The translations under genes and the position numbers were made by a program. Of a stretch of 8,021 bases of DNA, positions 1 through 8,021 are shown in pieces. Source of the DNA: a virus (Monodnaviria > Loebvirae > Hofneiviricota > Faserviricetes > Tubulavirales > Inoviridae); IMG/VR virus record IMGVR_UViG_2695420487_000001, positions 1-8,021 of that record. One strand, written 5' to 3'. The stretch's first letter is position 1; each line of letters opens with the position of its first letter. The notes under the pieces were generated by a model that did not search any database, was not told the origin of the DNA, and was given only the letters and a program-made list of their open reading frames with translations.

Positions 1-135
1 CTGTCGTTCTCAAAATCGGTGGAGCTGCATGACAAGGTCATCGGGCATTATCTGAACATAAAACACTATCAGTAAGTTGGAGTCACTACCCAATTTTTCC
101 ATTGTGGAACTGATAGGGTTCAGTTTCCTCTTATT

Positions 136-157
136 AAACCGTGGTTTCCCACGGTTT
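136..157. other. Perfect 9-bp stem hairpin (aaaccgtgg / ccacggttt, 4-nt loop) immediately beyond the stop of the minus-strand membrane-protein gene
   Basis: Read directly: 136-144 aaaccgtgg, loop tttc, 149-157 ccacggttt. Flanks are only weakly T-rich (tttgaaatt on +), so function as a terminator is uncertain. Confidence 0.3.
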
Positions 158-161
158 GAAA

Positions 162-584
162 TTACCAGTGATATGAATTTCTTCTGTGCCACCAATAAAG
201 CAGCCCGTATCCGATGATAAGAATTCCGAAAAACATCAACGACATTCCCCAGCCAGTTCCATACCACGAAACCATATCATCGAAAACCAATCCACCCGTT
301 TCACGTACTCCGGCAGCTTCCTTAAGGATTGGTTTGAATACCGGAATCAGAAGGGCAATCGCCAGTGGAGCACCCCAGCGAACAAGACCTGTTTCCATTT
401 TGATCCCGAAAAAGATCCCCGCCCCAACAACAAGCAGCCAGACTATCAGGCTAGGCGCAGTTTCCAGAGCTGTTTGCCATTCAACATCGAAAGTTTTCAT
501 TAGCCAGGCAACAACTGCCAGACAGAAAGCAAATATGCCCACGACAACCAGTTCAACGCCGCTTGTTTCGTTATTTCTACTCAT
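162..584 (-). CDS. Hypothetical small integral membrane protein (about 4 predicted TM helices), 140 aa; phage accessory gene or flanking host gene
   Basis: Intact 140-aa ORF with four long hydrophobic stretches (e.g. VELVVVGIFAFCLAVVAWLM, GWGMSLMFFGILIIGYGLLYWW). AAGGA Shine-Dalgarno-like motif about 8 nt upstream of the ATG on the minus strand. The overlapping opposite-strand ORFs lack such features. No family recognised by eye. Confidence 0.6.
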   Translation of the reverse strand: MSRNNETSGVELVVVGIFAFCLAVVAWLMKTFDVEWQTALETAPSLIVWLLVVGAGIFFGIKMETGLVRWGAPLAIALLIPVFKPILKEAAGVRETGGLVFDDMVSWYGTGWGMSLMFFGILIIGYGLLYWWHRRNSYHW

Positions 585-626
585 CCTTTTGATCCTTTTT
601 CACTGTTCAAAATTCGCGCAATAAAG

Positions 627-655
627 AACGTGCAGTGTTGGTAATACTGCACGTT
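627..655 (-). terminator. Candidate intrinsic terminator between the repressor gene and the membrane-protein gene (perfect 10-bp stem, 9-nt loop, CTTTATT on the minus strand)
   Basis: 627-636 aacgtgcagt and 646-655 actgcacgtt are exact reverse complements. On the minus strand the hairpin is followed by ctttattgcg. It lies 28 nt downstream of the repressor stop (683). Confidence 0.4.
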
Positions 656-682
656 AGTCTCATTCCTGAGACCGCTAGCTTT

Positions 683-1129
683 TTACTCTTCGCCTGACAA
701 TGCTTTTTTCATAAACATTTTTGTACTGTAAGTATATGAACTTAATGCAGAAACTTGCCTTGCAAGTGCCAGAATATCTTGCTTCTCCAGTGTTCTGATG
801 TTCCACACGATGAAATTATGCGCGTTCGTGGTTTCTTCATCAGTATATCCGTCCGCAGAAGTTATCAGCTTTCGCTCAGTAGCTTCTTCTTTAACATCAA
901 GAGCATAGCCATAAGCTAAGGTGTTCAAATCTGCGCCAGTAATTTTAGCTATCTGAATTATATCGCTGAATTTAGGTTCAGTTTTGCCGGACGCTATCCT
1001 GACCAGCGTACTTACGCTAATGCCAGTCTTCTCGGCCAGTTCTTCATAAGTCGAGTGTTCCAGAATTGCCTTTTTTATACGTTCTGCTCTCTGTTTGTCC
1101 GCCATAACTTCATGCTCATTGTTGCCCAT
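683..1129 (-). CDS. Helix-turn-helix (XRE / Cro-C1-like) transcriptional regulator, putative prophage repressor, 148 aa
   Basis: Intact ORF. The N-terminal segment EELAEKTGISVSTLVRIASGK has a typical HTH pattern. GGAG lies 7 nt upstream of the ATG at 1129. The gene is transcribed divergently from the replication gene gII, the arrangement seen for repressors of temperate filamentous phages (e.g. CTXphi rstR). The C-terminal roughly 80 residues are unassigned. Confidence 0.8.
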   Translation of the reverse strand: MGNNEHEVMADKQRAERIKKAILEHSTYEELAEKTGISVSTLVRIASGKTEPKFSDIIQIAKITGADLNTLAYGYALDVKEEATERKLITSADGYTDEETTNAHNFIVWNIRTLEKQDILALARQVSALSSYTYSTKMFMKKALSGEE

Positions 1130-1300
1130 CTACTTCGCTCCATCTTAACAGTGGTTTTTCAATAGTCTGATTACATGCTCAGTTCTGACAATTTAAACAT
1201 TGCAAATGTATTGACTGTCAGATCTGAGCATATTACATTGTGACCATTCAATCTGCTCACAAATGACTATTGACACATATTTTGATGGGTGTGACTACTT
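1130..1300. promoter_or_regulatory. Divergent control region between repressor and gII: candidate sigma70 promoter for gII (-35 TTGACT 1211-1216, 17-bp spacer, -10 TACATT 1234-1239) overlapping a 21-nt-arm imperfect inverted repeat (1170-1190 / 1216-1236)
   Basis: Hexamers read from the sequence. The repeat arms match as reverse complements at 17 of 21 positions. A second TTGACA occurs at 1270-1275 without a convincing -10. No experimental support. Confidence 0.4.
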
Positions 1301-2353
1301 ATGATCGACTGGTTTACCGGAATTCTTCCTTGCACACACCGACCGTTACCGGCCGGTAGTGTCGTCAGCGTTGATGCTGACGGTGCAGTGGAGTGGGAAA
1401 CAGTAAAGCGGTTGACCGTTCGCGGTTCATACGAATCCACAATGAAAGTACGATCTGTTGGATCAGACGGGGAGGGCCGGGCAACTCATCTTTATATTGA
1501 CGGAAATCCGTCAAAATTTCTTCAGGGGCATTCTGTTATTGGCTCCGATGATTTGCAGGGGCTGGTATTAACCGCTTACGCAAGAATATTGGCATTACTT
1601 CATATTCCTCATGATCTACCATCCTATCGTCAGGTAATGGCAGGGCAATTTAAGATCTCACGCATTGATATTAACTACATGTATTCATTATCAACGCTGG
1701 AAAATGTCCGCGCATGGCTATATGCCGCAGAATTCAAGGCTAAAACTCGCCATGGTCGCGCCTGTGGTAAAGGTGGAACTGTTTACTTAGGGAAAAACTC
1801 CCGGCGGTGGAGCCTGAAATTTTATTCAAAATATGATGAGCATATTTCTGGTAAAAAAGGACACCAGATAGCAGAAGAGTTTGTTAAAGCTGGCTTACTT
1901 GACTGGTCTAAAGATAAATTACGAATTGAATTGACGCTAAGAACAACAGAATTAATTGACTTAAACCTTACGCTTGGCAGTAACTGGAATATCGATACTC
2001 CAAACAAATTATTCTCTGAATATGTAGGGAGAATAGAAATGAATCAAAATGCCATTTTGACCGATGAAAAAATAGTTAAACTGCCGAGAAAAATACAATC
2101 AACATATTTACTGTGGAAGCAGGGCGCAAACATGAAAGAAATGCTTCCAAAGCCAACATTTTACAGGCACCGAAAAGAATTATTGTCTTTCGGGATAGAT
2201 ATTAATTTTTATTGTGAATCCCCTGATTCAAATAATGTTGTTCCATTAGTAAGAACACTTGAAGCTAAACCAGCCCAAATCCCTACATGGGTTTATGAGA
2301 AAGGTTTTATTTTTGATTACAACCGTATTTCACATGCCAGTAACTGGCATTAA
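1301..2353 (+). CDS. gII: Replication initiation protein pII (rolling-circle nickase, Phage_CRI-type), 350 aa
   Basis: Starts MID... like fd/M13 pII. Conserved blocks recognised from memory of M13 pII: KFLQGHSVIGSDDL vs KVLQGHNVFGTTDL, KISRIDINY vs TISRIDATF, NNVVPLVR near the C-terminus. It is followed by the gV/gVII/gIX/gVIII block as in Ff/IKe. Confidence 0.9.
   Translation: MIDWFTGILPCTHRPLPAGSVVSVDADGAVEWETVKRLTVRGSYESTMKVRSVGSDGEGRATHLYIDGNPSKFLQGHSVIGSDDLQGLVLTAYARILALLHIPHDLPSYRQVMAGQFKISRIDINYMYSLSTLENVRAWLYAAEFKAKTRHGRACGKGGTVYLGKNSRRWSLKFYSKYDEHISGKKGHQIAEEFVKAGLLDWSKDKLRIELTLRTTELIDLNLTLGSNWNIDTPNKLFSEYVGRIEMNQNAILTDEKIVKLPRKIQSTYLLWKQGANMKEMLPKPTFYRHRKELLSFGIDINFYCESPDSNNVVPLVRTLEAKPAQIPTWVYEKGFIFDYNRISHASNWH
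2039..2353 (+). CDS. gX: pX-like protein from in-frame internal start within gII (C-terminal 104 aa of pII)
   Basis: ATG at 2039 is in frame with gII, and MNQNAILTDE aligns with the M13 pX start (MNIYDDSAV) by position within pII. Inferred by analogy only. Confidence 0.45.
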   Translation: MNQNAILTDEKIVKLPRKIQSTYLLWKQGANMKEMLPKPTFYRHRKELLSFGIDINFYCESPDSNNVVPLVRTLEAKPAQIPTWVYEKGFIFDYNRISHASNWH

Positions 2354-2364
2354 AGGAGCGTGAT

Positions 2365-2682
2365 ATGTCTAATTATGGTCTTTTTGTAAAAGGTAAAATG
2401 CTTGGTGCTCGTCAGCGTAATAAAGTCAATGGTCAGGGCTATTACAATGAAATTGGTATCGGTTTAGAGATCCCTGATGGTTTTGGCGGTACTAAGCAAG
2501 ACCAAATAATTATTCGTGTATCACAGTCCCTTGTGAACGCCGGAGTCATGAATCAAGCCAATAGTTTTACGGGGAAATTAGTTCAAATCCCTGTATATGT
2601 TCGTGTCTGGTCAATGGAGGGTAGAGAAGGTGTGACTTATAATATTTCATCAGATGGTGGGATCACTGAAATAAAAGGTTAA
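2365..2682 (+). CDS. gV: Putative ssDNA-binding protein (gene V position), 105 aa; not obviously similar to fd/IKe pV
   Basis: Intact ORF with a strong AGGAG Shine-Dalgarno 8 nt upstream. It occupies the gene V slot between gII and gVII. Function is assigned from synteny, not from sequence similarity. Confidence 0.55.
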   Translation: MSNYGLFVKGKMLGARQRNKVNGQGYYNEIGIGLEIPDGFGGTKQDQIIIRVSQSLVNAGVMNQANSFTGKLVQIPVYVRVWSMEGREGVTYNISSDGGITEIKG

Positions 2683-2684
2683 TT

Positions 2685-2771
2685 ATGGATGATGTTATTC
2701 AAATATTAATAGCATCCGGCATTGTTATTTCTTTTGGTCTTGGTGCTATTACCGCAGGTGTCATTCGTTAA
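2685..2771 (+). CDS. gVII: Minor coat protein pVII-like, 28 aa
   Basis: Small hydrophobic peptide MDDVIQILIASGIVISFGLGAITAGVIR. It starts 3 nt after the gV stop and its stop overlaps the next start (TAATG), as in Ff phages. Resembles M13 pVII (…IQISVVLCFALGIIAGGQR). Confidence 0.6.
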   Translation: MDDVIQILIASGIVISFGLGAITAGVIR

Positions 2772-2866
2772 TGTATATTGTGTATTTCTTCGGGGCTTAT
2801 ACCTTAGGATTTGCCCTTTTCTATGCGGTCGGTTCGTTTAAAACATTATCTGACCGATTAATGTAA
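2771..2866 (+). CDS. gIX: Minor coat protein pIX-like, 31 aa
   Basis: MYIVYFFGAYTLGFALFYAVGSFKTLSDRLM. AGGTG lies upstream and the start overlaps the gVII stop. Position and size match Ff pIX (…YFTRLM…). Confidence 0.6.
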   Translation: MYIVYFFGAYTLGFALFYAVGSFKTLSDRLM

Positions 2867-2895
2867 TAAAACCTAACTTAAATGGAGTTATTTAT

Positions 2896-3138
2896 ATGAA
2901 AGTCATTTCTGTTATTAAATCTAAAATTGCTGTGGCTTCAACCGCACTTTTTGTTTCTGCAAGTTGTTTTGCTGCTGATGGCGCAACGGGTAGCACTGAC
3001 TATGCAGGTCAGGCAATGGATTCACTGCTGACTCAGGCAAACGATCTTATTGCAAAAGTATGGCCTGCTGTTGTCGCTGTCGTTGGTGCGGGTCTTGCCA
3101 TTCGTTTGTTTAAAAAGTTCTCTTCGAAAGCAGTTTAA
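2896..3138 (+). CDS. gVIII: Major coat protein pVIII precursor (signal peptide plus about 54-aa mature coat), IKe-like
   Basis: GGAG 7 nt upstream. Signal peptide ends ...SASCFA. The mature part ADGATGSTDYAGQAMDSLLTQANDLIAKVWPAVVAVVGAGLAIRLFKKFSSKAV closely resembles the IKe/Ff coat (…IRLFKKFSSKAV), with acidic N-terminus, hydrophobic core and basic C-terminus. Confidence 0.9.
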   Translation: MKVISVIKSKIAVASTALFVSASCFAADGATGSTDYAGQAMDSLLTQANDLIAKVWPAVVAVVGAGLAIRLFKKFSSKAV

Positions 3139-3147
3139 AATTCACTC

Positions 3148-3171
3148 AGGGGCACTCGTTGCCCCTTTATT
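3148..3171 (+). terminator. Rho-independent terminator after gVIII (stem GGGGCA / TGCCCC, then TTTATT)
   Basis: 3149-3154 ggggca pairs with 3160-3165 tgcccc and is followed by tttatt. This is the same position as the strong terminator after gene VIII in Ff phages. Confidence 0.7.
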
Positions 3172-3184
3172 AAAGCGGGTTATT

Positions 3185-4428
3185 ATGAAAAGGAAAATAT
3201 TAATTATTTCCGCTATTCTTATTTCTTCTTTTTCACATGCTGATTCATGGGAAAGCATTACTAAATCTACTTTTCAAAGCTCTGCCTATTCTGAAAGTAA
3301 GCAAATAACCAACCAAGATGGCACTAAACAAACTGTTTATTATATTGATGCAGCTATGCAGGCTTCTGCCTGTCAGGGGGCTAAAGACAGTGCTCAGGGT
3401 GTTTTTACTCAGGTTAAACCAACTTATGAGGGAGTATGGCCTAACTCTGAATTCCGTCTTGTGTTTTCTGACGCTTGTACCTACAGCGACTCTCCGGGCC
3501 AGAAAGATAAATACTGGAATTTAACCGCTTATATTATCGGTGATATTCAGCGTTCTATTCCTGATGAAAAACCCTCCGAGCCTACACCTGAAGAAATTTG
3601 TGAAGCTAAACCTCCTGAAGAAGGTGTATTTAATAATGTCTATCTTATGATGGTGATCGTTATATTTATTATAACGGTTGTGAATATGAGGCCACTGGCG
3701 TCATTGTTTGCCAGGGTGATGGCACTGTTTGTGCGGCGACATGGAAGCCTACCGGAACCGTAGCCGATCCTTCAGATAAGCCTTCTTCTCCTGCTGGCGA
3801 TGGTGGGGATACTGGAGGCGGGGATACGGGGGGTGGTGATACTGGAGGAGGTGATACAGGCGGTGGTAACTCAGGTGGCGGTAACTCAGGTGGTAATGGC
3901 TCAAGTATTACCAAAGGAGATATTCAGTCAGCTATTGAAGGTGCTTCACCTAAAATGGCCAGTGAGATTCATGATAAGTTAACAGAAAAAGACACCTCAT
4001 CTGATGATAAAAAATCGGCTGATGAACAGACTAAAAATAATATAAATCGTCTTGGTGACGCTATAAATAACCTTACTCGCGGAGCCGGACGTTTTGCTGA
4101 TCCTTCTGGCGGTGATTCTCGTTATGGGAAAGGGGATTCCGAATTAGACAGTGCTTCAACATTGGCTGAATCCGAATTAGGAATAGCTAAAGATTCTCAT
4201 GGTGCTTTATGGGAAGCATTCCTGAATAAAGGTGCTATGCTCCCTAGTTTACCTAATGGTAATGGTTGTTCTGAACTTGTTATTTTCCCCGGTGAAATTT
4301 ATCAGATTGATATTGAATGCGATAAATTACTTACTATCAAAGATGCGCTTTCATGGATTTTTTATTGCCTTACCTTCTGGTATGTATTTACGTCTTTAAC
4401 CTCATTACTTCGTAAAGGAGGTGAGTAA
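3185..4428 (+). CDS. gIII: Adsorption / minor coat protein pIII, interrupted by a frameshift (N-terminal part in frame 2 to about 3643, remainder in frame 1 from about 3646); pseudogene or sequencing error
   Basis: Signal peptide [19 protein letters not shown]. The span 3185..4428 is 1244 nt, not a multiple of 3. Frame 1 after the shift gives [37 protein letters not shown] (like the fd N1 motif DRYANYEGCLWNATGVVVCTGDETQCYGTW), a Gly-rich linker (GGDTGGG repeats) and a C-terminal domain ending …[36 protein letters not shown] (like fd …CDKINLFRGVFAFLLYVATFMYVFSTFANILRNKES). Frame 1 has no start codon near the shift, so the two parts are one gene. Confidence 0.8.
3796..3900. repeat. Tandem near-identical short repeats encoding the glycine-rich linker of pIII (GGDTGGG x4, GGNSGG x2)
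   Basis: Direct reading: ggtggggatactggaggc / ggggatacggggggt / ggtgatactggagga / ggtgatacaggcggt / ggtaactcaggtggc / ggtaactcaggtggt. The reverse complement produces the spurious proline-rich ORF 3669..3914. Confidence 0.8.
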
Positions 4429-4769
4429 TGCCTTTATTATTAGGTATTCCTGCACTATTGCGTTTTCTTATTGGGCTTGTTCCTTTATTTATTGGCTATG
4501 TGGCAAGCTTCCTCGCACGCCTTGCGACTAAAACAGGATTGATAGCTGTAGCATTAGTTGCATTAATTACAACAACTGTCACTCTCTTAATGCAATATCT
4601 TGCTGAGGTTATGTACAATGGCCTTCCTGCTGATTTTTCACATTTAATTGCATCTGTCTTACCAGACCATTTTCAGGCCTGTGTTAATGTCATTATGATT
4701 ACTCGAATTAGCGTTTTTGTTTTCGATTTAAAACAAAAATTCCTTGATTATGCAAACAAGGTGATTTGA
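4428..4769 (+). CDS. gVI: Minor coat protein pVI, 113 aa
   Basis: [16 protein letters not shown]… resembles M13 pVI MPVLLGIPLLLRFLGF…, and …VFVFDLKQKF resembles …IFIFDVKQKI. Strong AAGGAGGTGA Shine-Dalgarno. The start overlaps the gIII stop and the stop overlaps the gI start. Confidence 0.9.
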   Translation: MPLLLGIPALLRFLIGLVPLFIGYVASFLARLATKTGLIAVALVALITTTVTLLMQYLAEVMYNGLPADFSHLIASVLPDHFQACVNVIMITRISVFVFDLKQKFLDYANKVI

Positions 4770-5864
4770 ATGACGGTTCATGTCGTAACAGGGAAATTAG
4801 GTTCAGGTAAGACACTGGTTAGTGTTGCCAGAATACAGGAAAGACTAGCTAAAGGCTGTCCTGTAGCCACTAATCTAGATATTAAACTACATAATATGCC
4901 CATGGTTGGTCGTTATGCGAAAAAAACACGCGTGATTCGTGTCCCTGACAAACCTTCATTAAATGATCTGCTGGCTATTGGTGTAGGCAATACTTCCTAT
5001 GATGAATCACGTAATGGTCTACTGGTTCTTGATGAATGTGGGACTTGGTTTAATTCCCGTTCGTGGGGGGATAAAGACAGACAGCCAGTTATTGACTGGT
5101 TTTTGCATGCCCGTAAATTAGGCTGGGATATTATTTTTCTGATTCAGGATATTTCGATTATGGACAAGCAAGCACGGCTGGCGCTTGCGGAGCATGTTGT
5201 TTATTGTCGTCGTTCAGATAAGTTAAACATCCCATTTATTGGTTCTTTCATGAATATAATTTCAGGTGCTCGTTTTTCTTTACCAAAGGTTCACTTTGGT
5301 ATTGTTAAATATGGTGACAACGTTAATTCAATAACTGTTGATAAATGGATGTATACCGGAAAGTCATTATATTCCGCCTACAATACAAAACAGGCTTTTA
5401 CTGATAATTATCCGCATGGTGCTTATTCGCTTTTGCCGCCATTTATTACACATGGTCAGTTTTCCGTTAACAAAGGGTTTAATTATTATATGCGCCTCAC
5501 GAAAATTTACTTTCGAAAATCAAACCGATTAATATTAATGCTTTCATTTCTGGCATTGGGGCTTGGACTTGGCTTCTGGCTACAATCTGGTAAGAATGCT
5601 GATGAGATTTCGGCTATTAAATCTGCTCATGCTGAACAGGTGAGGGCAGTAACTCCTGACAGTACCAGCGATTTACCGAGACTATCAATTAATTCCTTCT
5701 CTCAACTTGGTTTTGATGTTTCCGTTACGTTTGTTGATGCTAAGGGTATGAAGTACCAGTATTTTGATTTAATTAAAGATGGTTATTCTGTTGATATTAA
5801 AGATGCCTGCCGAATTGTTATCAGAAAAGGCCGTTATTTACAAAACATCACCTGCCAGGAGTAA
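4770..5864 (+). CDS. gI: Assembly protein pI (Zot-like P-loop ATPase), 364 aa
   Basis: Walker A motif GKLGSGKT at the N-terminus. Long stretches nearly identical to remembered M13 pI (VTGKLGSGKTLVSV, LLVLDECGTWFNSRSW, IDWFLHARKLGWDIIFL, DKQARLALAEHVVYCRR). C-terminal TM segment LILMLSFLALGLGLGFWL. Confidence 0.95.
   Translation: MTVHVVTGKLGSGKTLVSVARIQERLAKGCPVATNLDIKLHNMPMVGRYAKKTRVIRVPDKPSLNDLLAIGVGNTSYDESRNGLLVLDECGTWFNSRSWGDKDRQPVIDWFLHARKLGWDIIFLIQDISIMDKQARLALAEHVVYCRRSDKLNIPFIGSFMNIISGARFSLPKVHFGIVKYGDNVNSITVDKWMYTGKSLYSAYNTKQAFTDNYPHGAYSLLPPFITHGQFSVNKGFNYYMRLTKIYFRKSNRLILMLSFLALGLGLGFWLQSGKNADEISAIKSAHAEQVRAVTPDSTSDLPRLSINSFSQLGFDVSVTFVDAKGMKYQYFDLIKDGYSVDIKDACRIVIRKGRYLQNITCQE
5490..5864 (+). 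CDS. gXI: pXI-like protein from in-frame internal start within gI (codon 241)
   Basis: MRLTKIYFRKS aligns with the M13 pXI start MKLTKIYLKKFS. It is in frame with gI. No obvious Shine-Dalgarno, so expression is inferred only by analogy. Confidence 0.45.
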   Translation: MRLTKIYFRKSNRLILMLSFLALGLGLGFWLQSGKNADEISAIKSAHAEQVRAVTPDSTSDLPRLSINSFSQLGFDVSVTFVDAKGMKYQYFDLIKDGYSVDIKDACRIVIRKGRYLQNITCQE

Positions 5865-5871
5865 TATTATT

Positions 5872-7137
5872 ATGCGTTTATTTTTCATTGCTATCTTATT
5901 CACTTATTCTTTTTGCGTTTCTGCTGAAACTGTTAACCTGAATAATTCATCCGTTCGCTCATTTGTCCAGTGGTATTCATCAAAAACTGGCAAGCCCGTT
6001 ATTGTTAATCCTGATGTTAAAGGAACCGTAACGGTATTTAATGCTGATGTTAATCCCACAAATATTGATAGTTTCTTCAAATCTGTACTGAATGCTAACG
6101 GATTTGTCATGCTTTCGGGTAATCCTGCAGTAGTCTCTTTGCCGTCAAAATTACCATCACAGATGGCGTCAGACCTTGATGATGCTGATATTCGGTCTTA
6201 TGACTCTTTCCCGTCTGAGCCATCTTATCAGCCAGCGCCAGTGGAGTTTACTGTCAGAAATTTTAAGCTGACAAAAGTTCGATCGTCTGATGTTCAGCAA
6301 CTGGTTAAAATTTATCTGGATTCTAATGGCGGGGGTAATGTTGTGGATTATCCTGGCAATAACTCCCTGATTGTTTCCGCACCTGATGAGCTGCTTCCCG
6401 TCCTTTCCGATTTCATCAATTCAGTGGATGTTGCCCGCGATCAGGTTTTGATTCAGTCGCTGATGTTTGAAACCAGTCTGTCGGATGGTGTTGATTTGTC
6501 GTTTGCAGCCGGTTCTGCATCCGGGCATAAAGTAGCAGGGGGCTTTAATACTTCAGCATTGGGTAGCGCATTGTCGACTGCCGGCGGCTCTTTTGGCATT
6601 TTTGATGGTAATGTTCTGGCCGTATCCCTGCGTGCGGTGCAGAGTAACTCCCGGTCTAAGGTGATTTCAACGCCCCGGATTCTTACCCAGTCTGGTCAGA
6701 CAGGCTATATTTCTGTTGGTAAAAATGTACCCTTTATCACGGGTAAAGTTACGGGTGAATCTGCCGGGGTAAATAATCCGTTTCAGACCATTGAACGTCA
6801 TGATGTTGGCGTATCTCTGAAGGTGACGCCTGTTGTTATGGGGAACGGCCAGCTTGTACTTACTATTGATACCCGCGCTGATTCCATCAGCAACGATGAC
6901 CAGGCATCTGATATTATTACGAACCAGCGTCAGATACAGACAACAGTTCAGATTAAGGATGGCCAGACGCTCTTACTTGGTGGGCTGATTGATTCATCAT
7001 CCAGCAATGCTGACCGTTCTGTACCGTTTATCAGTAAAATTCCGGTGATTGGCTGGCTTTTCAGGAGTAAAGCTGACAGTAATGAGCAACGCATTATGTA
7101 TGTTCTGCTGACCGCTCATATTATTCGCGCGCTTTGA
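5872..7137 (+). CDS. gIV: Outer-membrane secretin pIV (phage assembly/export channel), 421 aa
   Basis: Start chosen at MRLFFIAILFTYSFCVSA (signal peptide) with AGGAG about 10 nt upstream; the track ORF start at 5779 lies inside gI. Secretin blocks closely match remembered M13 pIV: VIVNPDVKGTVTVF, SGQTGYISVGKNVPFITGKVTGESAGVNNPFQTIERHDVGVSLKV, DGQTLLLGGL, VPFISKIPVIGWLF. Confidence 0.95.
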   Translation: MRLFFIAILFTYSFCVSAETVNLNNSSVRSFVQWYSSKTGKPVIVNPDVKGTVTVFNADVNPTNIDSFFKSVLNANGFVMLSGNPAVVSLPSKLPSQMASDLDDADIRSYDSFPSEPSYQPAPVEFTVRNFKLTKVRSSDVQQLVKIYLDSNGGGNVVDYPGNNSLIVSAPDELLPVLSDFINSVDVARDQVLIQSLMFETSLSDGVDLSFAAGSASGHKVAGGFNTSALGSALSTAGGSFGIFDGNVLAVSLRAVQSNSRSKVISTPRILTQSGQTGYISVGKNVPFITGKVTGESAGVNNPFQTIERHDVGVSLKVTPVVMGNGQLVLTIDTRADSISNDDQASDIITNQRQIQTTVQIKDGQTLLLGGLIDSSSSNADRSVPFISKIPVIGWLFRSKADSNEQRIMYVLLTAHIIRAL

Positions 7138-7287
7138 TGGGGCCGTGGCGGGTGCGTTAAGCCCCGGTATGGCCACATCAAGAGCCGGATTTTACGTTTC
7201 ACCACGGAGCCTCTATATGGCCTTAAAACTGACAGGATATGAACAGAAAGACATCTTCTAGGTAATTCAATTACTTAGAGGTTTTTT

Positions 7288-7536
7288 ATGTCTGTAAAAA
7301 GCAGGGTGCGCGATCGACTCCCCAGTGGTCGCATGAAGTCTTACCGTCGTGTTAGTTCACATTTTACCAGTTGTTCCAGGTGGTTTGATAAATCACCGTC
7401 CTGGTATCGCAATATGATGATGACCCGGCCAGAGCGCCGTGAAGTCAGAAAGCTTCTTAATCAGGTCTTGCGTGGTCGTGATGCTGACGGTATCGCATTT
7501 CCTGTCAGTAACAAGCCGTTTGCATGGTGGTGGTGA
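7288..7536 (+). CDS. Hypothetical small basic Arg/Trp-rich protein, 82 aa (accessory ORF between gIV and the dif-like site)
   Basis: Intact ORF with GAGG about 7 nt upstream of the ATG. High Arg/Ser/Trp content and the ending …FAWWW; no family recognised. It lies in a segment that looks GC-richer than the phage body. Coding status not verified. Confidence 0.4.
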   Translation: MSVKSRVRDRLPSGRMKSYRRVSSHFTSCSRWFDKSPSWYRNMMMTRPERREVRKLLNQVLRGRDADGIAFPVSNKPFAWWW

Positions 7537-7916
7537 ACTTTTTAGCCGCTAAAATTTAATGCTTACGAAGTTATCGTAAACTCCGGTCAGTGACAAAACT
7601 CGTTTTGTTGCTGTCCGGGGTTGGCCAAGCCGTACAGTTTTCATTTTGAGCGTTATAGCTGATTCGGCGCGGCAGCGTTCATCTTATCTGACATTGTGGC
7701 TGTATTTCTGGGGAAGGTTTCATGTATCAGGTACAGATTTACCAACTGCAACTGGATGAACAGGCCTGATTGGTGAGGTCAGGCCGTTCACTTACTGCTG
7801 ACAGACATTTGATTCTGATTCGTCTGGAGAAACGGATGATTTTGAATCACTGTCGATAGTTGCCAGTTGACGCCAAGTGTCAACGATTCCCGCCAGATTC
7901 TGCCATCCTTACCATT

Positions 7917-8010
7917 GGTGCGCATAATGTACGACTCGTTATGTTGAAAAGGCCGCTGCGAAAATCGAATCCCGCAGCGGCCTCTTTAGCATAACGTCAT
8001 TGTGCGAACC
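7917..8010. other. dif-like XerC/XerD recombination site pair in inverted orientation forming a roughly 94-nt imperfect palindrome (candidate attP / integration junction of an IMEX-type filamentous phage)
   Basis: 7917-7927 GGTGCGCATAA equals the E. coli dif XerC arm 11/11. It is followed by tgtacgactcg and by TTATGTTGAAA (7939-7949; dif XerD arm TTATGTTAAAT, 9/11). An inverted copy lies at 7984-8010: ctttagcataa (9/11 to the reverse-complemented XerD arm), then ttgtgcgaacc (9/11 to the reverse-complemented XerC arm). Between them is a perfect 10-bp GC stem. Confidence 0.65.
7951..7982. other. Central GC-rich stem-loop of the palindrome (ggccgctgcg / cgcagcggcc, 12-nt loop); could also act as a bidirectional terminator
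   Basis: 7951-7960 and 7973-7982 are exact reverse complements. The stem is followed by tcttt on the + strand and ttttcaac on the minus strand. Confidence 0.5.
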
Positions 8011-8021
8011 AAAAATCTCAA

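Follow-up and report, generated by a model that had tools for sequence, protein, structure and literature searches.

A candidate CTXphi-style attP built from two inverted dif-like sites in a dif-integrated filamentous prophage of Escherichia coli

Hijacking of the host Xer recombinases makes the integration of the cholera-toxin phage irreversible. The attP(+) of this Vibrio cholerae phage, CTXphi, a CTX-type IMEX, was reportedly described by Val et al. in 2005. The defining features of the CTX type are an attP1 with an over-long central region of 12 bp, which is hence unsuitable as a double-stranded Xer site, and an attP2 with a centre of 5-7 bp and incompatible bases; YpfPhi and CUS-1Phi are listed as related members (PMC4246890), and both have been classed as CTX-type (PMC4246890, PMC4266046). 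For Ypf of Yersinia pestis, inverted XerC/XerD sites, an intact 3' dif and tandem repeats were reported; the XerC/XerD mechanism was called 'proposed', and in E. coli in the laboratory Ypf was mostly episomal (PMC4266046). The UPphi viruses, described by Shapiro and Putonti in 2020, are dif-integrating relatives of IKe and I2-2 that integrate as tandem repeats (three copies in the ECONIH2 prophage) with only the first 15 nt of dif recurring, and their site was presented as 'a copy of the dif site', without an inverted site, attP or fold (PMC7307601). VGJphi- and TLCphi-type IMEX likewise lack an integrase of their own and depend on dif and the XerCD recombinases of the host. In the former, one double-stranded dif-like site has a central region of the usual 6-7 bp, and integration is reversible; the locus described below differs in its inverted pair of sites, whose spacers measure 11 and 5 nt. 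The latter have a degenerate XerD arm, recombine XerD-first and depend on an activator encoded by the element, XafT, whereas in the locus studied here the XerD arms match at 9 of 11 positions and the crossover lies on the XerC side; no DUF3653/XafT-type family was matched in a Pfam scan of the window, some small ORFs of which had no Pfam match of any kind.

The window, that is, the whole 8,021-nt stretch analysed, carries a filamentous prophage (Table 1). Its core gene order, gII, gV, gVII, gVIII, gIII, gVI, gI and gIV, is that of IKe and I2-2, and its pI is 64.8% identical to IKe pI, so the IKe/Ff-like carrier named in an earlier note on this DNA was recovered, with an IKe-like morphogenesis module. 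No integrase or recombinase was matched by Pfam in the 10 phage proteins scanned, and none is present in the RefSeq annotation of the prophage. A megablast search against a phage collection that lacked CUS-1, Ypf and UPphi returned only a 421-bp match to gene I of I2-2 and IS1 matches. Judging from its sequence, this prophage copy looks defective, with an IS1 end and a frameshift in gIII at about 3642. We assign to 7917-8010, with a probability of about 85%, the role of attP in a dif-integrating filamentous prophage, a mosaic of UPphi and CUS-1 that would use XerC and XerD in the manner of CTXphi.

Table 1. Positions of the phage genes and of the parts of the candidate attP within the window.
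Feature	Position	Strand	Remarks
IS1 end abutting the prophage, not phage	1..90	.	sequence match
Accessory ORF, 140 aa	162..584	-	no family match; 100% aa identity to UTI89 prophage ORF
HTH repressor gene, rstR position	683..1129	-	98.6% aa identity to UTI89 prophage gene
Replication module	1301..2682	+	gII 1301-2353, gV 2365-2682
IKe/UPphi-like structural/assembly module	2685..7137	+	gVII, gVIII, gIII, gVI, gI, gIV
gVIII	2896..3138	+	
gIII	3185..4428	+	
gVI	4428..4769	+	
gI	4770..5864	+	
gIV, secretin	5872..7137	+	
Intergenic region adjoining attR	7138..7916	+	ends in phage-side flank CCATCCTTACCATT
82-aa ORF	7288..7536		in attR-side intergenic region; 81.7% to UTI89 prophage ORF
Site 1 XerC-binding arm	7917..7927	+	GGTGCGCATAA, 11/11 to E. 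coli dif
Site 1 central region	7928..7938	+	11 nt, TGTACGACTCG
Site 1 XerD-binding arm	7939..7949	+	TTATGTTGAAA, 9/11 to dif; paired with 7984-7994 in all variants
GC-rich connector	7950..7983	+	34 nt; 11-bp stem 7950-7960/7973-7983, 12-nt loop 7961-7972; closes hairpin on XerD side
Site 2 XerD-binding arm	7984..7994	-	minus-strand TTATGCTAAAG, 9/11
Site 2 central region	7995..7999	-	5 nt, plus strand CGTCA; bottom strand of folded centre
Site 2 XerC-binding arm	8000..8010	-	minus-strand GGTTCGCACAA, 9/11

The region consists of two inverted dif-like sites around a GC stem of 10-11 bp, and all coordinates of the earlier note held when the sequence was re-checked. The exact XerC arm reported there is identical to that of dif at every position, and the near-consensus XerD arm does follow after an 11-nt spacer. 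On the minus strand, the second, inverted site announced at 7984-8010 reads GGTTCGCACAA-TGACG-TTATGCTAAAG. The stem core, said to be perfect within 7951-7982, joins GGCCGCTGCG (7951-7960) to CGCAGCGGCC (7973-7982) by 10 complementary base pairs, or 11 if A7950-T7983 is counted. Residues 8000-8010 are complementary to 7917-7927 except for a G.A mismatch and a T.G wobble. Homology to the dif centre was observed beside the XerC arm only: TGTA (7928-7931) matches the beginning of TGTATA and is followed by CGACTCG, and the bottom strand has CGTCA versus TATACA in dif. XerC would be expected to cleave at the 3' edge of the site 1 XerC arm. The stretches 7917-7949 (+) and 7984-8010 (-) were the only full dif-like sites in the window, and a whole-dif search with up to three mismatches found no intact dif inside it. 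Single arms with up to two mismatches occurred at chance level (2 vs 1.9 expected and 9 vs 6.4 expected), while an exact 11-mer match is expected 0.004 times per window; of 3000 simulated windows, 11 contained a full site and none an inverted pair of them.

Folded as ssDNA, as the earlier note had recommended, the plus strand of 7900-8021 formed one long imperfect hairpin of -30.7 kcal/mol, compared with -12.8 +/- 2.6 kcal/mol for its shuffles (z = -6.9; 0/200 as good). The predicted ACTCG bulge (7934-7938) was unpaired in the minimum-energy structure, with TACGACT unpaired in its place in the centroid structure, and both folds left 6 surplus nucleotides on the top strand. The interior of the site 1 spacer forms the bulge and its last CG pairs with a CG of the site 2 spacer, the bottom strand of the folded centre, at 5 nt, being shorter than that of dif (6) or CTXphi (7). 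The fork that had been claimed was not observed; the connector forms one unbroken stem, giving a straight hairpin whose internal bulge is asymmetric. The minus strand folds well too (-28.2 kcal/mol).

We compared the hairpin across 35 distinct variants from several genera, and also in a smaller set of 10 sequences. Among the 35 hairpins, in an alignment whose columns 23-44 were dictated by the pattern with which viral contigs were searched, 96.0% of pair cells were paired and 12 pairs had changed on both sides; none of 500 shuffles reached this level of pairing, and slid controls were 25-60% paired. The entropy was 0.17 bits in paired columns vs 0.85 bits in unpaired ones (p = 5e-7). Variation was located in the predicted bulge and loop, with a mean of 0.98 bits per column in the bulge interior (columns 14-20, including an invariant T) and 0.82 bits in the loop. 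The first three spacer bases that match the dif centre, TGT, were invariant. In Xenorhabdus and Photorhabdus, the stem sequence was swapped through compensatory changes. The spacers measured 9-11 nt in site 1 and 5-6 nt in site 2, and every variant possessed the inverted partner site. Taken as sequence comparisons, these observations support selection on the fold of the hairpin.

A prophage located just after hipBA in CP144928 matches the window at 99.96% identity, and the comparison supports the assignment of the window as a prophage that occupies exactly the dif site of E. coli, adjoining hipA. The IS1/prophage junction of the window had no match among complete genomes; the junction anatomy described here is that of CP144928, UTI89 and ECONIH2. 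The left junction of CP144928 passes from host flank into the full hairpin, and the inter-copy junction from the phage flank CCATCCTTACCATT into the full hairpin, as in the window. The right junction runs from phage flank through a perfect dif into host flank, so the dif that had been sought at the other end of the element is present where the array ends. In the empty site of MG1655, dif is surrounded by these two host flanks, and the UTI89 and ECONIH2 prophages share the arrangement of CP144928. Two prophage copies were present in CP144928, at least two in the ECONIH2 stretch read, and one in UTI89. Compared with each other, the junctions place the crossover within the shared ATTGGTGCGCATAATGTA, which comprises the XerC arm and the 4 nt next to it in the central region; the dif segment that recurs at the junctions is the 15-nt GGTGCGCATAATGTA. 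The XerC arm of the window is preceded by CCATCCTTACCATT, as at the internal and attR junctions, and this phage-type left flank implies phage-derived sequence after the hairpin, the window itself ending at 8021.

The polarity of integration, with the junction at site 1, agrees with the prediction for XerC cleavage on the plus-strand hairpin; a minus-strand hairpin as substrate would have been joined at site 2, in the opposite orientation. Exchange of double-stranded DNA at site 1 alone would give identical junctions, and for this reason junction data cannot separate ssDNA from dsDNA entry. A VGJphi-type route, in which double-stranded site 1 recombines with dif under XerC catalysis and site 2 and the stem are incidental, thus predicts attL and attR exactly as they were found, and site 1, whose XerC arm is perfect and whose XerD arm matches at 9/11, would provide it with TGTA homology beside the XerC arm. 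Nevertheless, we regard this route as improbable. Functional Xer sites have 6-7 bp between their arms, much less than the 11 bp of site 1, and in all 35 variants this long spacer is kept in length (9-11) and not in sequence. Moreover, the inverted partner is constant and co-varies with site 1, whereas VGJphi-type elements have one dif-like site only (PMC4246890).

According to the CTXphi-style model that we favour, the inverted half-sites would pair in the packaged (+) ssDNA to yield duplex XerC-binding and XerD-binding arms, with the GC stem-loop closing the XerD side. The packaged strand is presumably the plus strand, given the gene orientation and the Ff precedent. In the folded centre, only TG/CA and CG/CG would be paired, with about 6-7 top-strand bases bulged. 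Host XerC and XerD would bind this mimic of dif and form a synapse with chromosomal dif, XerC would cut after GGTGCGCATAA on both partners, and one pair of strands would be exchanged, stabilised by the TGT(A) homology to the dif centre TGTATA. As the XerD side lacks homology, no second strand exchange would follow, and replication would turn the junction into an integrated prophage, flanked by the whole hairpin towards hipA and by a restored dif on the opposite side. Neither double-stranded spacer (11 or 5 bp) would suit Xer, and integration should therefore be irreversible; new phage would arise by rolling-circle replication across tandem copies. By analogy with CTXphi, the substrate would be single-stranded, catalysis would be by XerC only, replication would resolve the junction, and integration would be irreversible.

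We used CTXphi as a positive control, and its attP1 spacer of 12 nt, inverted attP2 spacer of 7 nt and fold (z = -7.3) were recovered. Like CTXphi, the locus has two inverted plus-strand sites with an over-long first spacer (11 vs 12) and a short second one (5 vs 7), dif homology by the XerC arm only (TGTA here, TGT in CTXphi), and a strong ssDNA fold. In both cases, the site lies between the last plus-strand gene and the divergent repressor side, and the integrated phage is bounded by the complete hairpin on one side and by a restored dif on the opposite one. Tandem arrays occur in CTXphi and were observed here in CP144928 and ECONIH2. Unlike the 89-nt connector of CTXphi, which branches, the connector here has 34 nt and a continuous GC stem that makes a plain hairpin. 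Further differences are the arms, which follow enterobacterial dif and not the Vibrio dif of CTXphi, and the coding content, as the phage of the window encodes its own secretin and an Ff-type gII instead of RstA. In terms of the CTX type, we found an inverted pair, abnormal spacers, ssDNA pairing, XerC-side homology, the corresponding junctions and no recombinase. The folded attP hijacking XerCD that the earlier note had put forward is in line with the dif insertion, the conserved pairing and the CTXphi layout.

Two known groups share parts of this genome. The dif prophage of UTI89 is probably CUS-1 (of E. coli O18:K1:H7), as judged from the serotype clone and the gene layout. Its hairpin is 100% identical to 7915-8021 of the window, despite unrelated morphogenesis modules, and nucleotide identity reaches 91.9% over 91-2690, 79.8% over 7216-7683 and 96.7% over the 212 attR-proximal bp at 7720-7931. 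The accessory ORF and the repressor (Table 1), gII (95.4%) and gV (96.2%) are also similar in protein sequence, and, as in CUS-1Phi and YpfPhi, the prophage is integrated in dif with an intact dif at its 3' end. In contrast, the structural/assembly module (about 2690-7216) has no nucleotide similarity to the UTI89 prophage; identity between the secretins is 27%, and BLASTP found no match for the remaining morphogenesis proteins. The window does not show the identity of about 99% over the 7.1-kb phage core that would place it with CUS-1Phi/YpfPhi. The gene set and order resemble those of UPphi, as do the IKe/I2-2 likeness, the Ypf-like gII and gV (87-93% identical to ECONIH2 UPphi), the dif integration in tandem repeats and the shared GGTGCGCATAATGTA. 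Proteins of gVIII, gVI, gI and gIV are 82-96% identical to those of the ECONIH2 UPphi prophage, whose hairpin differs by one loop base. Unlike UPphi, the window has immunity and attR-side modules of the CUS-1 type, and nucleotide identity in the core reaches only some 84%. For h1 and h2, the signature genes located between gIV and dif in UPphi, BLASTP gave no match between the ECONIH2 proteins and the window. With h1 and h2 absent and the 82-aa ORF similar to that of UTI89, the phage is a UPphi x CUS-1 mosaic and not a strict UPphi virus. Yersinia and E. coli were not represented among the results of a genome-contig search with pI, which did return relatives from Vibrio, Halomonas and Marinomonas with a different site arrangement.

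Hundreds of genomes and plasmids in which site 1 has been lost also carry the GC stem and site 2, with an identity of about 93%. Their persistence without site 1 suggests that this part may have a separate role and may be kept for another reason, e.g. termination of the abutting gene. It could accordingly be argued that the palindrome functions chiefly in transcription termination, in packaging or as a minus-strand origin hairpin and that the likeness to dif is a scar of integration, and several observations fit such a role: the 11-bp GC stem sits between convergent genes, TTTTC follows it on the minus strand, the stop codon of the minus-strand ORF lies 4-18 nt past site 2 in every locus examined, the stem and site 2 survive in phage-less remnants, and Ff phages retain functional hairpins in the corresponding region. 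A scar, however, would leave the inverted XerC/XerD arms, the 5-6 nt spacer and the co-variation with site 1 unexplained. A consensus promoter and terminator scan did not call the stem, whose 12-nt loop exceeds the limit of the scan, and the T-run is short; the one promoter-like match, which overlaps the XerC arm, is at chance level (1 vs 1.2 expected). For packaging or origin functions, better-placed hairpins exist in or near the attR-side intergenic region at 7134-7181 (by the gIV stop, as in Ff) and 7579-7622, and Rfam gave no family at threshold; at a permissive E-value it produced only generic hairpin matches far under gathering scores. We hence consider it very unlikely that such a function is the main one. 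As a secondary role, termination of minus-strand accessory genes by the GC stem is compatible with attP, and we would put it at somewhat less than an even chance. That the XerC arm is the host's own dif, or a chance match beside unrelated sequence, can be practically dismissed: GGTGCGCATAA is the host arm and at attL junctions the arm is host-derived, but in the window, where the earlier note had asked about this origin, it is preceded by the phage flank CCATCCTTACCATT and the sequence past TGTA diverges from dif, the array has its true dif at the distal end, MG1655 has the empty site, and the simulations gave no inverted pair (0/3000).

Both the phage group and its CTX-like integration strategy are already in the literature. 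The novelty implied for a non-integrating IKe/Ff lineage does not stand, as dif-integrating relatives of IKe and I2-2 were published in 2020 (PMC7307601). The increment is small: the fold is now spelled out for UPphi, and its description as 'a copy of dif' is corrected. The compensatory pairing, invariant TGT and free bulge give stronger computational support than the published one-line statement on Ypf. The strategy that serves the cholera-toxin phage would here be that of E. coli filamentous prophages tied to extra-intestinal and urinary isolates. For work on ssDNA Xer integration beyond Vibrio, the site would also offer an E. coli substrate that is at hand and amenable to genetics. Its practical value is modest but real, and the expectations of specialists are unchanged.

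We must also note that the hairpin appears to outlive the phage as phage-less islets by dif, and copies are present on large plasmids. Hypervariable regions have reportedly been described of late in Vibrio inoviruses. A tentative and rather doubtful extension is that the hairpin and the constantly abutting minus-strand gene form a portable lysogeny-and-cargo cassette, passed among inovirus backbones with no other relationship and delivering anti-phage defence genes; if true, the E. coli dif locus would be a Xer-fed hotspot of defence genes comparable to those Vibrio regions. Among 25 distinct abutting proteins, six matched defence-candidate families, namely SIR2/PDC-S25, AbiJ_NTD4+DUF7014/PDC-S32 and Pycsar-type TIR/PDC-S35.

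Rather than a free phage genome, the window is a filamentous E. coli prophage in its integrated state. Over positions 91-8021, three differences (99.96% identity) separated it from strain SCPM-O-B-12142 (NZ_CP144928.1; CP144928 below), and positions 1-90 were the end of an IS1. In CP144928, two tandem prophage copies lay directly after hipBA, the same place as dif in E. coli K-12. No match to a recombinase family was found among the window's genes. The copy in the window is probably defective: compared to both CP144928 copies, the attachment protein gene gIII (3185-4428) was frameshifted by a 1-bp deletion at 3642, and IS1 stood in place of the left-hand sequence. Barring a sequencing error behind the deletion, infectious particles are probably beyond this copy. 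The IS1 end adjoined the prophage 36 bp from the end of a 369-aa accessory gene of CP144928; therefore, in the window copy, the accessory gene and hairpin expected on the attL side are missing or displaced. This junction was absent from the complete E. coli genomes of the collection searched. The flanks of the prophage were inferred from CP144928 and from the dif prophages of UTI89 and ECONIH2.

Features of the window, of the CTXphi control and of comparison loci
Feature	Position	Strand	Details
Minus-strand genes		-	140-aa ORF, HTH repressor
Plus-strand genes, in order		+	gII, gV, gVII, gVIII, gIII, gVI, gI (Zot domain), gIV secretin, 82-aa ORF
Inverted repeat after gIV	7134-7181		19-nt arms; begins at the gIV stop codon
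Inverted repeat after gIV	7255-7281
Inverted repeat after gIV	7579-7622
Site 1, XerC arm	7917-7927	+	GGTGCGCATAA; 11/11 vs E. coli dif XerC arm
Site 1, spacer	7928-7938	+	TGTACGACTCG; 11 nt
Site 1, XerD arm	7939-7949	+	TTATGTTGAAA; 9/11 vs XerD arm
GC stem	7951-7960 with 7973-7982		10 bp, perfect; 11 bp counting A7950-T7983
Hairpin loop	between the stem arms		12 nt
Site 2, inverted	7984-8010	-	minus strand GGTTCGCACAA-TGACG-TTATGCTAAAG; each arm 9/11; spacer 5 nt
CTXphi attP1	RS1-CTX junction of the CTXphi record		AGTGCGTATTA + 12-nt spacer + TTATGTTGAGG
CTXphi attP2, inverted	89 nt after attP1	-	AATGCGTATTA + 7-nt spacer + TTATGTTACGG
CTXphi right end			dif1-type site, AGTGCGTATTA-TGTATG-TTATGTTAAAT; XerC arm phage-derived
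ORFs adjoining site 2 (examples)	L001 8109-9218; L082 4073-5425; L081 4072-5013; L084 525-918	-

The earlier note's description of the two dif-like sites, the spacer and the stem was exact on re-inspection. Folded as ssDNA, the plus strand of 7900-8021 formed a single long imperfect hairpin of −30.7 kcal/mol, compared to −12.8 ± 2.6 for shuffles (z = −6.9; 0/200 matched the real energy). As the note had anticipated, ACTCG was an unpaired bulge in the minimum-energy structure. The minus strand folded somewhat more weakly (−28.2 kcal/mol, z = −5.3). The "forked" shape did not hold, because the connector is a single stem; the hairpin is straight, with an asymmetric internal bulge.

The empty site of MG1655 reads ...cttccttggtttatatt-GGTGCGCATAATGTATATTATGTTAAAT-catgtctgag.... 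At the left junction in CP144928, the MG1655-type host flank ran into GGTGCGCATAA-TGTACGACTCG-TTATGTTGAAA, with the stem and then site 2 behind it; this complete hairpin matched window 7914-8021 exactly. The inter-copy junction consisted of the phage flank ...ccatccttaccatt and the whole hairpin, a configuration shared by the window. At the right junction, a perfect dif lay between the phage flank and the host sequence catgtctgag. The integration junction was formed at site 1. Phage and host were identical only over ATTGGTGCGCATAATGTA, which places the crossover within the XerC arm or the four bases that open the central region. XerC cuts within this interval. Use of site 1 would be predicted for cleavage of the plus-strand hairpin, while a minus-strand hairpin would be expected to give a site 2 junction and an inverted prophage. 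By themselves, the junctions fit ssDNA and dsDNA entry equally, since dsDNA exchange at site 1 alone gives identical ones.

As reviewed in PMC4246890, CTX-type phages have two inverted sites with 12-bp and 5-7-bp centres ill-suited to dsDNA recombination, homology beside the XerC arm only, and catalysis by XerC only; replication resolves the junction, integration is irreversible, and tandem copies yield phage. Our control, the CTXphi attP, folded at −52.2 kcal/mol (z = −7.3). It lies between the last plus-strand gene and the divergent repressor, as does the window's hairpin, but its connector is branched. With two inverted sites, a stable fold, insertion at dif and the same layout in the control, the CTXphi-style attP proposed in the earlier note is supported.

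Further hairpins came from other E. coli dif loci, from genera reached with the pI protein (Rosenbergiella, Izhakiella, Xenorhabdus and Photorhabdus) and from 43 IMG/VR contigs. All eight hairpins folded had a common shape, in which the 5′ strand of the central region was longer by 5-6 bases (z = −6 to −11). Among ten diverse hairpins, 96.5% of pair cells were paired and 12 of 38 pairs had changed on both sides, values equalled by 0/500 shuffles; slid controls were 27-58% paired. The GC stem of Xenorhabdus and Photorhabdus differed in sequence, with pairing complete. The 35 distinct hairpins were 96.0% paired, with 12 compensatory pairs and none of 500 shuffles as good. Column entropy in this set was 0.17 bits for paired vs 0.85 bits for unpaired columns (Mann-Whitney p = 5e-7), with means of 0.98 bits in the bulge, 0.82 in the loop and 0.03-0.35 in the four recombinase arms, columns 23-44 of the alignment being predetermined, in the case of the IMG/VR sequences, by the pattern used to find them. 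The TGT at spacer bases 1-3, the start of the dif centre TGTATA, was invariant in the 35, and spacers measured 9-11 nt in site 1 and 5-6 nt in site 2 without exception. Part of the arm co-variation may arise because each arm follows the specificity of host XerC/XerD, and not because the arms pair; either origin supports a Xer substrate. We also observed recurrent mismatches in the hairpin alignment (A2), namely G.A in the XerC arms (18/35 variants; columns 4/95, window 7920/8007) and A.C at the XerD arm/stem boundary (24/35; columns 33/70, window 7949/7984). T.G wobbles were retained at window 7925/8002 and 7944/7989. Such departures from Watson-Crick pairing may make cruciforms form less readily or dsDNA sites harder to recognise.

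The best-supported reading, to which we assign a probability of about 0.85, is that the folded plus strand is exchanged by XerC at dif, fixed by replication and not excised. The packaged plus strand would fold, XerC and XerD would bind the rebuilt arms, and XerC would swap one strand pair with dif, aided by TGT(A) homology. The mismatched XerD side would block the second exchange, and replication would fix the insertion. The double-stranded prophage would not excise, because its site centres are 11 bp and 5 bp. Our data demonstrate the anatomy, the fold, the site of insertion, the junctions, the crossover interval, the tandem arrays and the evolutionary constraint; that ssDNA is the substrate, that XerC alone catalyses the exchange and that integration is irreversible are presumed on the model of CTXphi. 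VGJ-type recombination of site 1 alone as dsDNA would leave the same junctions, but it is improbable given the conserved long spacer and the co-varying inverted partner. Slightly less probable still is a hairpin serving primarily as a terminator, packaging or origin element, which leaves the second set of Xer arms unaccounted for when the repeats at 7134-7181 and 7579-7622 are better placed. A secondary terminator role of the GC stem is plausible, because a minus-strand ORF ends 4-18 nt past site 2 in every locus examined (37/37). A host dif or a chance match deserves almost no weight. Single arms (≤2 mismatches) occurred in the window at chance level; only 11/3000 simulated windows held a full dif-like site, and 0/3000 an inverted pair.

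The inverted repeats after gIV, all strong, one of them a terminator-like stem with a T-run and one with 21-nt arms, are candidate packaging signals or replication origins. The gIV stop codon, where the first repeat begins, is the position of the Ff packaging signal.

The finding is already known, because a CTX-type attP in CUS-1/Ypf and an integrating IKe-like phage have been published, and the hairpin is identical to that of the UTI89 dif prophage (100% over window 7915-8021; attR-side segment 96.7%), whose right end is a perfect dif. CUS-1 was defined in the O18:K1:H7 clone, to which UTI89 belongs, and we infer that the UTI89 prophage is CUS-1. Reviews place YpfPhi and CUS-1Phi among related CTX-type members (PMC4246890), and for Ypf, inverted XerC/XerD sites, a 3′-terminal intact dif and tandem repeats are on record, with the XerC-dependent mechanism termed "proposed" (PMC4266046). 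As reported by Shapiro & Putonti 2020 (PMC7307601), UPphi viruses are relatives of IKe and I2-2 that, unlike those two, integrate, doing so at dif as tandem repeats that match dif over the first fifteen bases only; their genes II and V are Ypf-like. The paper calls the site "a copy of the dif site" and makes no mention of an inverted site, attP or fold. The earlier note correctly read a real, functional-looking element, but its surprise at an integrating IKe-like phage had been anticipated in print. The fifteen bases are exactly GGTGCGCATAATGTA. In ECONIH2, the worked example of that paper, the internal-junction hairpin was one loop base off the window's and the right end was a perfect dif. 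We add a little to this: UPphi-type phages rely on the folded site described above, not on a copy of dif; comparative evidence supports selection on the fold; and in its enterobacterial version the hairpin lacks branches and has a bottom-strand centre of 5 nt.

The repressor, gII, gV and 140-aa ORF of the UTI89 prophage had 95-100% protein identity to the window's, whereas its morphogenesis genes were unrelated; those of the ECONIH2 UPphi prophage were 82-96% identical. The window pI was 64.8% identical to IKe pI. The UPphi signature genes h1 and h2 were absent from the window, which carries immunity and attR-side modules of the CUS-1 type; therefore, it is a UPphi x CUS-1 mosaic. Segments 91-2690 and 7216-7931 (accessory ORF, repressor, gII, gV, attR-side intergenic region) were CUS-1-like, as in UTI89, and 2690-7216 (structural and assembly genes) UPphi/IKe-like, as in ECONIH2. 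Such a mosaic fits an origin by recombination among distinct prophages stacked at dif.

Vibrio/Photobacterium pI relatives (L040, L041, L046, L054, L057-L059, L061, L064) carried, ~5.4 kb upstream of the pI match, a complete minus-strand dif-like site opposite a poorly conserved partner 42-109 nt apart, which may be another attP design. Close or clear pI relatives were also present in contigs labelled Candidatus Nanosynbacter, Paenibacillus, Actinomadura and SAR11 (L005, L006, L012, L015), probably contaminated or mis-binned assemblies; in L006 (4780-4918), the E. coli hipA-dif flank (GGATTCTCCCTTGGTTTATGTT) precedes the hairpin.

The GC stem and site 2 (window 7940-8012), the right two-thirds of the feature, recurred at ~93% identity in ~950 of 5426 complete E. 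coli genomes, with 487 plasmid loci among them. Both remnant contexts read (L081 3944-4071; L082 3930-4072 and 6718-6745) had an unrelated 49-bp segment (TGTCAAAGCTCAGTGAAAATGTCTAATCACTGGCTCATTAGAAATGTCC) in place of site 1 and lacked phage genes; one minus-strand gene came next, then an ISNCY pseudogene, then dif or a site resembling it. That gene was SIR2 on the chromosome and AbiJ_NTD4+DUF7014 on the plasmid. The minus-strand ORF beside the hairpin was hypervariable in identity across loci. Six of 25 distinct proteins beside intact or remnant hairpins matched defence-candidate families (three AbiJ_NTD4+DUF7014, PDC-S32; two Pycsar-type TIR, PDC-S35; one SIR2, PDC-S25), and the others scanned had no family match. 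The slot 3′ of site 2 looks like a defence-gene cargo site. Together with the remnants, it resembles the hypervariable regions reported in Vibrio inoviruses (PMC12715192).
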